DNA from: Escherichia coli
GTDB lineage: Bacteria > Pseudomonadota > Gammaproteobacteria > Enterobacterales > Enterobacteriaceae
Length of the DNA: 32,848 nt
Reading direction: 5' to 3' (one strand)
Assembly: GCF_003334315.1 (NCBI RefSeq)
Contig: NZ_QOWR01000053.1
Shown here: positions 25,239 through 29,615 of the stretch, piece by piece
Layout: each line of letters opens with the position of its first letter
How positions within the stretch are numbered: the stretch's first letter is position 1
Translations under genes and position numbers: made by a program
Notes under the pieces: generated by a model
The model's input: only the letters and a program-made list of their open reading frames with translations
Database searches by the model: none
What the model was told of the DNA's origin: nothing

Positions 25239-25277
25239 CACGCTACCGCCCCTGGCTTTTTAGCTACCAATACACTG
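25239..25277 (-). promoter_or_regulatory. JUMPstart/ops element in the wza 5' leader (RfaH-dependent antitermination site for the colanic acid operon)
   Basis: cacgctaccgcccctggctttttagctaccaatacactg is near-identical to the element at 873-911 and contains the reverse complement of ops GGCGGTAGCGTG at 25239-25250. Confidence 0.85.
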
Positions 25278-25478: not shown

Positions 25479-25718
25479 GTGTCATTCAATATGGTTTTTA
25501 GGAGTTTCTTTAGGTTGACAATATTTAATATTGCGTCTCAACATGCGATATTTCTTAAATAATGTTTTATCATTACCACTTTTAATTCAGGGATAATGTG
25601 AGGTTATTATCCTCAAATAATATGAGATAAATAGTGCTGCAACATTGCATTTTTGCCCCGATTTATCCATGATCGAATTGTGACATTTGTCATACAACGA
25701 ATAGGTTTTGTACTTACT

Positions 25719-27302
25719 ATGGAATGGATTGCCGATCCGTCTATCTGGGCCGGGTTAATCACGCTGATTGTGATCGAACTGGTCCTCGGCATTGATAACC
25801 TGGTCTTTATTGCCATCCTCGCCGAAAAACTACCGCCGAAGCAGCGCGACCGCGCACGGGTTACCGGGCTGTTGCTGGCGATGTTAATGCGCCTGTTACT
25901 GCTGGCGTCAATCTCCTGGCTGGTCACCCTGACTCAACCGCTATTCAGCTTTCGCTCGTTTACCTTTAGCGCCCGCGACTTAATCATGCTGTTTGGTGGT
26001 TTCTTCTTGTTGTTCAAAGCCACGATGGAGCTGAACGAACGGCTGGAAGGGAAAGACAGCAATAACCCCACGCAACGCAAAGGTGCGAAGTTCTGGGGGG
26101 TGGTGACACAAATTGTGGTACTGGACGCCATCTTCTCACTCGACTCGGTGATTACCGCCGTCGGGATGGTCGACCATTTACTGGTCATGATGGCCGCCGT
26201 GGTTATCGCTATTAGCCTGATGTTGATGGCCAGCAAGCCGTTAACGCAATTTGTTAACAGTCACCCGACCATCGTTATTCTCTGCTTAAGCTTCCTGTTG
26301 ATGATTGGCTTTAGCCTGGTGGCAGAAGGTTTCGGCTTCGTCATTCCGAAAGGCTACCTGTACGCTGCCATTGGTTTCTCGGTGATGATCGAGGCGCTCA
26401 ATCAGTTGGCTATCTTTAACCGGAGACGTTTTCTTTCCGCTAACCAGACGCTGCGCCAGCGGACTACCGAAGCGGTAATGCGCCTGCTTAGCGGGCAAAA
26501 AGAAGATGCGGAACTGGACGCCGAAACCGCGTCCATGCTGGTGGATCATGGTAACCAGCAGATCTTTAATCCGCAGGAACGGCGGATGATTGAGCGGGTA
26601 CTTAATCTTAACCAGCGTACCGTCAGCAGCATTATGACGTCGCGCCACGATATTGAGCATATCGATCTCAACGCGCCGGAAGAAGAAATCCGCCAGTTGC
26701 TGGAGCGAAATCAGCATACGCGGCTGGTGGTTACCGACGGTGATGACGCAGAAGATTTGCTCGGTGTTGTTCACGTTATCGACCTGCTACAACAGTCTCT
26801 GCGCGGCGAACCGCTCAACCTGCGGGTGTTGATTCGCCAGCCGCTGGTGTTCCCGGAAACCTTGCCGTTGTTACCTGCCCTGGAGCAGTTCCGTAATGCC
26901 CGCACGCACTTTGCTTTTGTGGTGGATGAGTTTGGCTCGGTGGAAGGGATTGTGACATTAAGTGACGTCACTGAAACCATTGCCGGTAACTTACCGAACG
27001 AAGTGGAAGAGATCGACGCCCGCCATGATATTCAGAAGAATGCGGACGGTTCCTGGACGGCGAATGGTCATATGCCGCTGGAGGATCTGGTGCAATATGT
27101 GCCGCTGCCGCTGGATGAAAAACGTGAATATCACACCATTGCCGGGCTGTTGATGGAGTATTTGCAGCGTATTCCAAAACCTGGCGAAGAAGTTCAGGTG
27201 GGGGATTATTTGCTTAAAACGTTGCAGGTAGAAAGCCATCGCGTGCAGAAGGTGCAGATTATACCGCTGCGTAAGGATGGCGAGATGGAGTACGAGGTGT
27301 GA
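25719..27302 (+). CDS. yegH: Inner membrane protein YegH (TerC-family membrane domain with CBS pair and CorC/HlyC C-terminal domain)
   Basis: Translation from [39 protein letters not shown] (TerC-like) followed by CBS-type and transporter-associated regions; ATG at 25719. Confidence 0.9.
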
Positions 27303-27350
27303 TGGCATGTAGGCCTGATAAGACGCGTAAAGCGTCGCATCAGGCGTTTC
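27303..27350. repeat. REP element immediately downstream of yegH
   Basis: gtaggcctgataagacgcgtaaagcgtcgcatcaggcg is a REP palindrome. Confidence 0.8.
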
Positions 27351-27438
27351 GTTCAACCGGGAGAGTATGTGACATTGAAGGCTGTTCCGTTCACTTTATG
27401 TTCCTCGCTACTATGGAACGCTCAAGTCGGTGAACGTG

Positions 27439-27467
27439 CCAGGGTGGCTCAATCGCCACCACCCTGG
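27439..27467. other. Perfect 9-bp stem with 11-nt loop hairpin in the yegH-asmA convergent intergenic region
   Basis: ccagggtgg (27439-27447) and ccaccctgg (27459-27467) are exact reverse complements; a further palindrome gcccacatccatgtgggc lies nearby. Confidence 0.5.
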
Positions 27468-27699
27468 CAACCCGGGCTCCCGGCGGTAAATCGCCGCTAG
27501 CGCGGTTCCCTCATCTTATTCCTTTCGGCTATCGGGTACGGGCGCGAGGTAACATCCCTGTAAAACGCGCCCTCAGCCCACATCCATGTGGGCTGCCCCG
27601 GCCTACAGGAAACGATTCGGCGATTTACAGCCGGACCAACCCCCTCGCGGAAATATCTTGCTTTTACTGATGATTCATCTTTGCTGAAAGTAATCTACG

Positions 27700-27752
27700 T
27701 GATTGCCTGATGCGACGCTTTACGCGTCTTATCAGGCCTACAGGACTGGTCA
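27700..27752. repeat. REP element downstream of asmA (convergent terminator region)
   Basis: gcctgatgcgacgctttacgcgtcttatcaggcctaca is a REP palindrome. Confidence 0.8.
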
Positions 27753-27761
27753 CCTGGTAAC

Positions 27762-29615
27762 CTACATCTTCTCCAGCAACTTCTTCACATCTTTGCCATT
27801 GCGGGAATCTTTATTCCGCTCGGCCCAGTCATTCAGACGACGTTTCGCTTCGTCCTGTAGATGTTTGCGCAGTAACTGATCCACTTGCAGACTGTAATTG
27901 AGTTGCTGCCAGTTGCCATAAACCCGCAGCGGTACTGGCGTTTCTTTAAGGAAATCAATCAGTTTGCTTTCCCCGTTCCAGCCACCCACGACCCGAATAT
28001 CAAACTGGGTGTCGCAGGTTTGATCTGCCAGATTCAACATGCCTTCCCCTGTCAGCGCCAGCACAGGCGATTGACCTTGCATGTCGTTTAACGTCACGAC
28101 GCCATCCTTCAACGTCAAATCGGTGGTAAAGCGGTCAAGACGCGTTACGTTATCGAAGTTTTCAGCGGCCTTCACATCACCACCATTACGTTCTACCGCT
28201 TGCTGAATCATCTGCTGGAAGTTCATCCCTTCCATGCGCGTCTCGGCCATTTCGACATGTGCCTGTCCTTGCCAGTTATGGCGGAATGCGTCAGCATCTA
28301 TGTCAGCACCGGAGAAATCACCAGCCAGTGACATCTTTCCGGTCAACGAAATCGGATAGTTAAACGCCTTCAGTATGGTACCAATCTCAACGTTTTCCAG
28401 CCGTGGCTGGAAGTTTATCCGCGGATTTATTGATGTCGCGTCCAGCGTGCCCGGCAGTGAAACCTGTCCACCGTTAAGCTTGCCCTGCAGTTGAGTAATT
28501 TCCAGCAAACCCGACTTGTTGGTCATTTGCGTGGCAACATCTGTAAAATTCATTCCGCGCCAGCGCACGTTACTGGCCTGCAACAAAATATCAGCCGTAA
28601 AGCCTTGCAGTCCCTGATAGGCCGGTTCATCAATACGCGAAGAAATGACCGGGCGCGGCAACGTTGATTGGCTCTGCCCCTGCTGCGCGGCACCGTTTTC
28701 ACCGTTCGCTGTTTCATTAAGCGGGATGAGGTTGTCAAGATTCAGCTGCGGGAATTGCAGTCTCAGCTGCCATTCCGGTTGCTCTGTCAGCGTGACCTGT
28801 GCTTGCCCGCTCAGCGTACTGTCATTGGCGGTCAAACTAATTTGGTTAAATGAAAGGCGTTTATGTGACTCCTGCCATTGGGCCTGGAAACTCCCTTGCC
28901 CTTGAATACCTTGTTTTGGTAAATCGGCACCCTGCAACTGCCAGTTAATTTGTTCAATAGCCGCCGTTAAATCATGCGGATAATCAGAAGCATCCACCGT
29001 ACCGTTAAGGGATATTGTGAGATCGCGCTGATCGCGATTAACCCGCCCGGAGAACTCAAATGAGCCACGATGTTGGGGATCTTGTTCCATTTGCAGGCGG
29101 ATATTGCGGATTGTCACCTGCTCGTCATCTTCATGCTGGAACACCAGCACGCTGTCCGCCACCTTAAGACTGGATATATCAAACGACCATCCGCGATCGT
29201 CTGACAGATCCGGCAAGGTATTGTCGCGCGGTGCAACCGGAGCGTCTTCACTGCGCACCGCTTCCGTCTGCGGCGTCAGTTGGATCACTGCCCCTTTTAG
29301 CATCACCTGCTTAACGCTCAGTTGATGACTCAGTAGTGGTAAAAGCGCCACGTCCAGGCGCATGTTGTCGGCGCGAACCAGTGGCTGGGTCGCGCCCTGG
29401 GCGGTGAGAGACATTCGCCCGGAGAGGATACTAAGTTGCGGCCAGACGTGCCAACGCAGTGGCCCGTCGAGCTGCAATTGATAACCGCTACGTGCAGCAA
29501 CTTGCTTGACCATATAGTCGCGGAAATCATTCGGATTCACCAGCAACACTAACGCAGATAACCCGGCCACCAGCACGACCAGGAGTATCATCAGCGTCGT
29601 CAGAAATCGTCTCAT
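27762..29615 (-). CDS. asmA: Outer membrane assembly protein AsmA
   Basis: 617 aa, MRRFLTTLMILLVVLVAGLSALVLLVNPNDFRDYMVKQVAARSGYQLQLDGPLRWHVWPQLS, the AsmA N-terminal anchor and family. Confidence 0.93.
   Translation of the reverse strand: MRRFLTTLMILLVVLVAGLSALVLLVNPNDFRDYMVKQVAARSGYQLQLDGPLRWHVWPQLSILSGRMSLTAQGATQPLVRADNMRLDVALLPLLSHQLSVKQVMLKGAVIQLTPQTEAVRSEDAPVAPRDNTLPDLSDDRGWSFDISSLKVADSVLVFQHEDDEQVTIRNIRLQMEQDPQHRGSFEFSGRVNRDQRDLTISLNGTVDASDYPHDLTAAIEQINWQLQGADLPKQGIQGQGSFQAQWQESHKRLSFNQISLTANDSTLSGQAQVTLTEQPEWQLRLQFPQLNLDNLIPLNETANGENGAAQQGQSQSTLPRPVISSRIDEPAYQGLQGFTADILLQASNVRWRGMNFTDVATQMTNKSGLLEITQLQGKLNGGQVSLPGTLDATSINPRINFQPRLENVEIGTILKAFNYPISLTGKMSLAGDFSGADIDADAFRHNWQGQAHVEMAETRMEGMNFQQMIQQAVERNGGDVKAAENFDNVTRLDRFTTDLTLKDGVVTLNDMQGQSPVLALTGEGMLNLADQTCDTQFDIRVVGGWNGESKLIDFLKETPVPLRVYGNWQQLNYSLQVDQLLRKHLQDEAKRRLNDWAERNKDSRNGKDVKKLLEKM

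Follow-up and report, generated by a model that had tools for sequence, protein, structure and literature searches.

The Escherichia coli DNA analyzed here, a stretch of 32,848 nucleotides from contig NZ_QOWR01000053.1 (hereafter referred to as the window), carries the converging genes yegH, whose open reading frame (ORF) ends at position 27302, and asmA, whose ORF lies on the minus strand and ends at position 27762. The two genes are separated by a 459-bp spacer (27303-27761), for which the initial annotation had proposed repetitive extragenic palindromic (REP) elements at both flanks and several perfect hairpins in between. Both proposals were borne out. We are confident that the spacer comprises three parts, namely a yegH-proximal REP (REP_a), a copy of a dispersed structured repeat that represents a diverged paralog of the TRIP1 family, and a second, inverted REP proximal to asmA (REP_b; Table 1). 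The two hairpins quoted previously were located in the central part, with fully complementary arms TGCCAGGGTGG and CCACCCTGGCA at 27437-27447 and 27459-27469, and CAGCCCACAT and ATGTGGGCTG at 27574-27583 and 27586-27595, respectively.

TRIP1 elements are intergenic repeats of E. coli (Rudd, 1999; Li et al., 2024, PMC10888264) that are 146-273 bp in length, rich in GC and able to mediate inversions, with a predicted 'double-Y' RNA fold. Five copies have been catalogued, located at aqpZ-lysO (TRIP1a), putP (TRIP1b), dusC (TRIP1c), alx-sstT (TRIP1d) and copA-ybaP (TRIP1e) (PMC10888264). Two of them, TRIP1a (lysO) and TRIP1c (dusC), have also been described as Replication Risk Sequences (RRS), which were reported to block polymerases, to give rise to transient gaps of single-stranded DNA (ssDNA) and to change global supercoiling, and whose deletion from K-12 brings about phenotypes throughout the genome (Pham et al., 2024, PMC11194060). 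Over 190 nt, the window copy shares 85.8% identity with TRIP1c (E = 2e-54), compared with ~67% overall, and it co-aligns with the TRIP1 copies in an alignment (A1) of 51 family members that are less than 93% identical pairwise. Its core both aligns and covaries with the TRIP1 copies, and other genomic copies exist. With ~67% overall identity to TRIP1c, it does not reach the whole-repeat identity of at least 84% to TRIP1a that, together with a catalogued locus, characterizes TRIP1; yegH-asmA is not among the listed loci, and neither PMC10888264 nor PMC11194060 mentions yegH, asmA or the proX locus. Because of this low overall identity and a different type of 3' domain, which is common to the proX and mmuM-tauA copies, the yegH-asmA copy is, as judged from its sequence, a member of a sister subfamily of TRIP1 (yegH-asmA, proX-MFS [major facilitator superfamily], mmuM-tauA) that is absent from the published TRIP1a-e catalogue.

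The family is widely dispersed. BLAST searches with the spacer produced matches in all 5426 complete E. coli genomes, with the whole arrangement present in 42 of them, and the REP-free core (27366-27650) was found at a median of three places per genome (maximum ten), which settles in favor of a dispersed family the question of whether the segment is specific to its locus. Further E. coli copies are located at mmuM-tauA, proX-MFS, yohP-dusC and putP-efeU; no second copy was detected within the window. A scan across species, conducted with one genome per species and a pattern derived from the two hairpin loops, yielded 103 loci in Escherichia species, Enterobacter, Lelliottia, Kluyvera, Citrobacter, Pluralibacter and Silvania, the last with at least ten copies per genome, besides a few isolated pattern matches in unrelated bacteria that showed no further likeness to the element.

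The element spans ~340 nt and has its sense strand on the minus strand of the window, in the same sense as asmA. Its fold is supported by several lines of evidence. Applied to the 51 aligned copies, RNAalifold predicted 54 pairs, 30 of which showed compensatory changes. In a curated structure of 14 helices and 69 pairs, 95.1% of the cells were paired, compared with 39-43% when the partners were slid, and both sides had changed in 36 of the 69 pairs; the covariation score was 0.270, compared with 0.113 in shuffled alignments, none of which (0/500) scored as high. The core helices (1-11) were 87-100% paired, and helix 8, which forms hairpin 1, reached 99.7%, with four pairs changed on both sides. 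As G:U pairs far outnumbered A:C mismatches (103 vs 16), selection appears to have acted on the fold of the window minus strand, i.e. the asmA-sense strand. Folding of the spacer interior gave -130.2 kcal/mol for the minus strand (z = -3.96; 0/200 shuffles equally good), in line with the stable single-strand fold typical of TRIP1, and -115.5 kcal/mol for the plus strand (z = -2.94). Long-range pairing over 17 nt connects 27480-27496 with 27618-27634, the core has a GC content of 59%, and the centers of its two conserved loops are ~28 nt apart. The perfect hairpin of helices 12/13 is homologous to the arm that bears the G-quadruplex in the RRS (TRIP1a and TRIP1c). ORFs of 33-44 amino acids within the spacer were considered as coding sequences and rejected, because their substitutions reflect compensatory base pairing and are not codon-like. 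The outcome that the initial annotation had named as speaking against any additional element, namely a region composed entirely of REP or BIME (bacterial interspersed mosaic element) sequences and devoid of further conserved structure, is thus not what the strong covariation indicates.

Table 1. Positions of the features of the yegH-asmA spacer in the window, and of related doublets at other loci (L numbers).
Feature	Position	Strand	Description
REP_a, yegH-proximal	27309-27345	-	hairpin arms 27313-27326 / 27332-27345; plus-strand sequence GTAGGCCTGATAAGACGCGTAAAGCGTCGCATCAGGC; inverted repeats I1, I4, direct family D1
3' tail	27358-27387	-	GAACAGCCTTCAATGTCACATACTCTCCCG on sense strand; partly conserved family-wide; alignment A1 columns 300-330
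Helix-14 domain	27388-27436	-	CGTTCAC...GTGAACG stem around variable insert; 5/6 pairs changed on both sides; 97.7% of cells paired
Helix 12/13 perfect hairpin	27438-27468	-	GCCAGGGTGG...CCACCCTGGC; inverted repeat I6; 7/10 pairs changed on both sides
TwoAYGGAY-like core	27479-27635	-	P1 closing stem, multi-branch stem, two loop-conserved hairpins, small hairpin 27494-27505
P1 stem	27479-27493 with 27621-27635	-	long stem closing the core
Hairpin 2	27540-27572	-	GGGCGCGUUUUACAGGGAUGUUACCUCGCGCCC; loop CAGGGAUG at 27553-27560; helices 9 and 10
Intact insertion sequence target site	27546-27559	+	GAGGTAACAT/CCCT (slash marks the insertion point); insertion after AT at 27554-27555, hairpin-2 loop
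Hairpin 1	27574-27595	-	CAGCCCACAUGGAUGUGGGCUG; loop CAUGGAUG at 27581-27588; inverted repeat I8
5' extension	~27636-27704	-	~65 nt, AT-richer; adjoins REP_b; homologous to 5' flank of members in other genera
REP_b, asmA-proximal	27705-27741	+	hairpin arms 27705-27718 / 27724-27737; GCCTGATGCGACGCTTTACGCGTCTTATCAGGCCTAC; inverted repeats I1, I5
Doublet loci	L036:1670-2262; L040:10847-11439; L070:1474-2067; L115:8354-8945; others

The core resembles an orphan RNA motif, TwoAYGGAY (Weinberg et al., 2010; Rfam RF01731), which is characterized by two AYGGAY loops and a long P1 stem. Both features are present in the window copy, with AUGGAU in loop 1 and AGGGAU in loop 2, the latter a variant that also occurs in the RF01731 seed alignment, whose Psychromonas members are likewise multi-copy and combine the loops ACAUGGAUGU and CAGGGAUG with a long P1 stem. 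The match extends over 27533-27601 on the minus strand and scores 29.1 bits, below the gathering score of 43, as do the matches of its relatives (30.6-33.4 bits, some covering the full model). Searches of the spacer at gathering and permissive thresholds identified no Rfam family at its gathering score, only sub-threshold matches to TwoAYGGAY and REP/naRNA4. Of the fold and Rfam checks proposed at the outset, the former showed folding superior to that of shuffled sequences on both strands, and the latter gave no match at a gathering score. A weak match to the Aggregatibacter small RNA AaHKsRNA22, seen in the 3' half of a Silvania copy (L036:2101-2194, plus strand; 31.3 vs 39.8 bits), had no counterpart in the window.

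Conservation of the two loops has to be viewed in light of the way in which the copies were collected, since the pattern used to assemble the 51-copy alignment fixes both loops and thus makes them invariant by construction. A profile search that left the loops unconstrained uncovered 35 further copies, more diverged or partial, in which CA(N)GGAUG was retained wherever the hairpins were present. The stable fold and its covariation would also fit a locus-specific, independently transcribed small RNA gene, as the initial annotation had considered. However, the element is dispersed in multiple copies and inverted between strains at this very locus, and no Rfam family reaches its gathering score. 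In addition, neither sigma-70 promoter-like sites nor intrinsic-terminator-like sites (a GC-rich hairpin followed by a T-run) were detected on either strand between 27200 and 27900. We thus regard such a gene as highly improbable.

Both flanking hairpins conform to the REP class, whose members are imperfect palindromes of ~35 nt that match GCCKGATGCGRCGY...RCGYCTTATCMGGCCTAC and occur in hundreds of copies per genome; BLAST matches confined to the REPs were obtained in every genome. REP_a and REP_b together constitute inverted arms of 55 nt with 87% complementarity, and each partially matches naRNA4, an Rfam family derived from REPs (27312-27392, minus strand, 29.7 bits, for REP_a; 27659-27738, 37.1 bits, for REP_b). 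REP_a directly adjoins the 3' tail of the element. The mutually inverted REPs show the alternating orientation of BIMEs, but they are 359 bp apart, instead of being joined by short linkers of tens of base pairs, and the intervening sequence is filled by the TRIP1-type element. The earlier suggestion of a 'composite BIME or other repetitive extragenic element' therefore holds in its second half, for a dispersed repetitive element, and fails for a canonical BIME.

The genomic context of the family is strongly biased. Of 58 copies examined, 31 are located in convergent spacers, 14 in tandem spacers in sense orientation, 11 in tandem spacers in antisense orientation and two in divergent spacers; 45 copies share the strand of their upstream gene. 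The family thus strongly prefers gene 3' ends and shows no orientation bias between tandem genes (14 vs 11), for which reason a rule based on transcriptional orientation was discarded. Given this preference and the position of the REPs on both flanks of a convergent spacer, the REPs and the GC-rich hairpins might serve to end and stabilize the converging yegH and asmA transcripts, in the manner of a composite BIME or bidirectional terminator. We consider this role very unlikely, because no hairpin with a T-run is present on either strand, the 359-bp interior is a conserved 14-helix element that also occurs at non-convergent loci, and K-12 has only one REP and half of the element, with some strains having none.

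The spacer exists in several allelic forms. Among the 5426 genomes, the window type is found in 42, with strain 17MR471 as an example, and the full K-12 type, represented by AGR5151, in 1456; a truncated K-12 type is present in many, and certain lineages, O157:H7 SS17 for instance, apparently have no copy at this locus. The element of K-12 and AGR5151 is opposite in orientation relative to the flanking genes, and only the asmA-side REP is present. REP_b is accordingly kept in both allele types, whereas REP_a is absent from the K-12-type allele, in which a possible degenerate REP remnant was noticed by eye beside yegH. The K-12 copy (L002:2982-3254, L004:3487-3759) has, moreover, lost 178 bp that encompass the 5' arm of P1 and the two hairpins with conserved loops, so that K-12 data are silent on the core of the yegH-asmA copy. 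In both arrangements, the 3' tail of the element and the adjoining REP are kept in the same relative orientation, a feature that fits an inversion between inverted REPs and subsequent decay of one of them. Relative to K-12 and most E. coli, the element is inverted in the window, and the sequences from the core to the REPs are too far diverged between the alleles to allow for a recent simple flip. The window type also occurs in E. whittamii, in Escherichia sp. E1V33 and in one divergent E. coli, and Citrobacter freundii (L064) has a copy in window orientation ~160 bp downstream of a yegH-like 3' end. The window-type allele of E. whittamii (L044:8472-8829) has its core interrupted midway by an insertion of ~78 bp, located between core positions 140 and 144. 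In strain 500010, the part of the spacer from asmA to the element additionally harbors a gene for a helix-turn-helix antitoxin-like protein and a truncated gene for a RelE/ParE toxin (both within L006:2028-2475), and these insertions mark the spacer as an insertion hotspot.

Such polymorphism raises the possibility that the family is a non-autonomous mobile one, whose fold has been selected for its own mobilization at the ssDNA level, and that the window copy is an old, vertically inherited insertion without host function, whose significance is limited to that of repeat DNA, in inversions and as a landing site of insertion sequences (IS). At proX-MFS (L007:2315-2766 vs L116, L117), the element is present in 544 genomes and, between the same flanks, allelic to one or two REP-containing sequences in the remaining genomes; presence/absence polymorphism is thus seen there, with a REP-pair allele, as are deletion and absence alleles at yegH-asmA. 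REP-like CCCTCTCCC...GGGAGAGGG palindromes also enclose family members of other genera. Diverged copies in Silvania, Lelliottia and Enterobacter form head-to-head doublets, with 17-45 nt between the two copies (Table 1), which are reminiscent of REPIN-like mobile doublets; in one genome of Silvania hatchlandensis, two of three doublet loci (L036 and L040) are identical across the junction examined. The copy number of at least ten per Silvania genome and the bias in location (31 convergent, 25 tandem and two divergent spacers), which is typical of tolerated insertions, would also suit a selfish origin. On the other hand, a comparison of filled and empty proX-MFS alleles revealed neither a target-site duplication nor terminal inverted repeats, with the empty alleles carrying REPs. 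Similarly, clustering of all ORFs within 2.5 kb of ~90 copies did not identify any recurrent transposase, the recurrent neighbor clusters being spurious ORFs within the element and orthologous transporters such as a ferric ABC (ATP-binding cassette) ATPase. Each E. coli copy is locus-specific and old, the Citrobacter copy also lies downstream of yegH, and deletion of RRS has genome-wide phenotypes in K-12. A purely selfish relic is therefore possible but, on balance, doubtful.

Whatever its origin, the element is, as far as its junctions indicate, a specific landing pad for an RNA-guided IS110-family IS, with the loop of hairpin 2 as the target. An IS of 1387 bp resides at the same loop position in two copies, namely that at yegH-asmA in strain 500010 (L006:2691-4077) and that at dusC-yohP in an O170:H18 strain (L012:~2108-3477), with junctions of the form GAGGTAAC(A/G)T/..IS../ATCC(C/T)TG. 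The site in the window is intact and matches the uninterrupted target rebuilt from L006, and L012 shows the same position with substitutions. The end of the IS was found in 177 E. coli genomes, and in 174 of these it forms a junction with the element. Its transposase matches NF033542 ('IS110 family RNA-guided transposase') with 359 bits and is remotely similar to the recombinases of IS621 and ISCro4 (E ~1e-7). In the non-coding region 3' of the gene, GAGGTAACA is directly followed by AGGG, and the RNA of the IS contains the guide-like segment GAGGUAACA-AGGG. This order, in which the left target flank precedes the complement of the right flank CCCT, is as expected of the target-binding loop of a bridge RNA.

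The sequence of the two loops also invites comparison with CsrA-binding sites. The consensus obtained for CsrA by systematic evolution of ligands by exponential enrichment (SELEX), RUACARGGAUGU, has invariant ACA and GGA motifs, with GGA located in a hairpin loop (PMC4347634). The loop of hairpin 1 fits the ACA.GGAUGU part of this consensus, hairpin 2 (UACAGGGAUGU) agrees with 11 of its 12 positions, and the presence of GGA in at least two hairpin loops, as required of a CsrA site, is thus given at the sequence level, with the motif persisting in the copies collected without loop constraint. The 7-nt loop form of the diverged copies, CAGGAUG, also matches the repeat motif of CsrB. It is conceivable that the element is transcribed, as part of the 3' untranslated region (UTR) of asmA in the window and of yegH in K-12-type strains, and that the GGA loops of its hairpins bind the two faces of one CsrA dimer, so that it would act as a CsrA-binding module, a sponge or a CsrA-dependent stabilizer of 3' ends.

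Such a clamp would be in keeping with the resemblance of loops ACAUGGAUGU and UACAGGGAUGU to the SELEX consensus, the retention of CA(N)GGAUG, including the 7-nt CAGGAUG, in diverged copies, the similar loops of the Psychromonas TwoAYGGAY seed sequences, the ~28-nt distance between the loop centers, the covariation and G:U asymmetry expected of an RNA, and the same-strand upstream gene in 45 of the 58 copies. However, dusC, ybjE and asmA have no peak in the K-12 CsrA data obtained by crosslinking and immunoprecipitation sequencing (CLIP-seq; Potts et al., 2017), and the TRIP1 loop strings occur in none of the peak sequences, a result that depends on expression and on a K-12 yegH-asmA copy without the hairpins. 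Moreover, orientation between tandem genes is unbiased (14 sense vs 11 antisense), no promoter or terminator was detected between 27200 and 27900, the invariance of the loops in the 51-copy alignment arises by construction, and no link between CsrA and TRIP1 was found in the literature searched. CsrA binding at the window copy, although kept as the main alternative, therefore appears rather unlikely. The broader notion that TRIP1/RRS-type elements are transcribed RNAs of the TwoAYGGAY class, serving as dispersed CsrA-binding 3'-UTR modules or sponges, is more speculative still; if true, part of the RRS phenotypes now ascribed to DNA obstacles would be mediated by RNA.

The only activity shown for the family so far is exerted at the DNA level and concerns TRIP1a and TRIP1c alone, for which obstacle and gap formation have been reported (PMC11194060). 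In the RRS, the sense strand, once exposed as the lagging-strand template, is reported to fold and to block polymerases, with transient ssDNA gaps being left onto which SSB and RecA are loaded; family copies also serve as recombination substrates for inversions. The GC skew of the window plus strand (-0.037) and the location of 16 of the 21 ORFs of at least 250 amino acids on the minus strand suggest that the sense strand of the window copy has the polarity of a lagging-strand template, as in the RRS; in the K-12-type allele, the polarity is the opposite. Because the G-quadruplex needed by the RRS is not conserved in the window copy, a weaker RRS-like obstacle, combined with a recombination hotspot, would be expected there.

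Several observations weigh against an RRS-like role. The only G-quadruplex candidate is a weak one with two tetrads (GGGAGCCCGGGTTGCCAGGGTGGTGG), and the G4Hunter maximum is 1.04, compared with 2.04 for TRIP1c. In the K-12-type yegH-asmA copy and in the proX, putP and mmuM-tauA copies, the sense strand has leading-template polarity, as derived from locus data and the K-12 map; a general rule of replication orientation, which holds for TRIP1a, TRIP1c and the window, fails for these four and was abandoned. Furthermore, the copy is dispensable, with K-12 having lost 178 bp and some lineages apparently the entire copy, and folds of 14 helices with sequence-conserved loops are found in functional RNAs more typically than in replication obstacles. 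Since the G-quadruplex is not conserved and other E. coli copies have the opposite polarity, an RRS-like mechanism at the window copy can only be put forward tentatively. The same reserve applies to the combined proposal that this mechanism operates and that the entity under selection is the single-strand fold of the minus strand rather than the duplex. As an overall explanation, we nevertheless lean slightly toward a spacer made up of REPs and a diverged TRIP1/RRS copy that may act in an RRS-like manner and provides a landing pad for the IS.

Some features of the window outside the spacer deserve mention. Its polysaccharide gene cluster contains an algC RNA motif (10624-10673, minus strand, 77.3 bits) and a full naRNA4/REP match (10760-10830, plus strand, 75.1 bits), both above the respective gathering score. 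Two JUMPstart RNA motifs also exceed the Rfam gathering score, with 57.3 and 60 bits, and are located upstream of wza (25239-25277, minus strand) and near the start of the window (873-911, minus strand). In addition, the TerC-family genes yegH (25653-27302) and alx (at TRIP1d) both have a family member downstream, reflecting either coincidence or targeting.

Collectively, known repeat classes account for the over-structured spacer, and any function at this locus is putative. At the level of the family, RRS and TRIP1, which have so far been read as G-quadruplex obstacles, belong to a larger, covariation-supported family of which the G-quadruplex is not the conserved feature. Its fold is related to the orphan Rfam motif TwoAYGGAY, its invariant loops correspond in sequence to the high-affinity CsrA site, and an RNA-guided IS110-family recombinase is programmed to target one of these loops. 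None of these four links was found stated in the literature searched.

Compared with the known systems, the window copy is closest to TRIP1, with which it shares homologous sequence, a covarying multi-helix fold, a GC-rich composition, an intergenic location close to the 3' ends of genes and to genes for membrane proteins or transporters, variation in copy number and orientation, and the ability to mediate inversions. It differs from TRIP1 in falling below the 84-94% identity that links TRIP1a-e, in the type of its 3' domain (a GTTCAC...GTGAAC stem and the GCCAGGGTGG hairpin) and in the GC content of its core (59%, compared with the 62-65% reported for TRIP1). The RRS have the same family membership and fold and, as suggested for the window, a G-richer sense strand with lagging-strand-template polarity. 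However, their G-quadruplex motif GGGGGTGCAGGGGGCGGCGG is not conserved in the window copy, as reflected by the G4Hunter values, and the window copy is not part of a near-identical pair placed symmetrically about dif and is dispensable in many strains. REPs and BIMEs are represented by the two canonical inverted hairpins at the flanks and, at proX-MFS, by a REP pair allelic to the element, whereas the interior of the spacer, which keeps the REPs 359 bp apart, is no BIME linker.

TwoAYGGAY RNAs have in common with the element a long P1 stem around two adjacent hairpins, the loops CAUGGAUG and CAGGGAUG and multiple copies per genome. The element is nevertheless no member by Rfam's criterion, given its score below the gathering threshold, and the enterobacterial version has ~180 additional conserved nucleotides, comprising the 5' extension and two 3' hairpin domains. 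CsrA-binding RNAs such as CsrB/CsrC and the SELEX ligands similarly present ACA.GGAUGU in hairpin loops, with two sites per element, but the element has two such sites only and was not detected by CsrA CLIP-seq. Finally, the relationship between the element and the IS parallels that between REPs and IS621, in which an RNA-guided IS110-family element specifically targets a conserved chromosomal repeat and a guide-like sequence matches both target flanks; in the present case, however, a different IS is involved, its non-coding region lies 3' of the gene, and insertion is directed to the hairpin-2 loop of a TRIP1-type element rather than to a REP.

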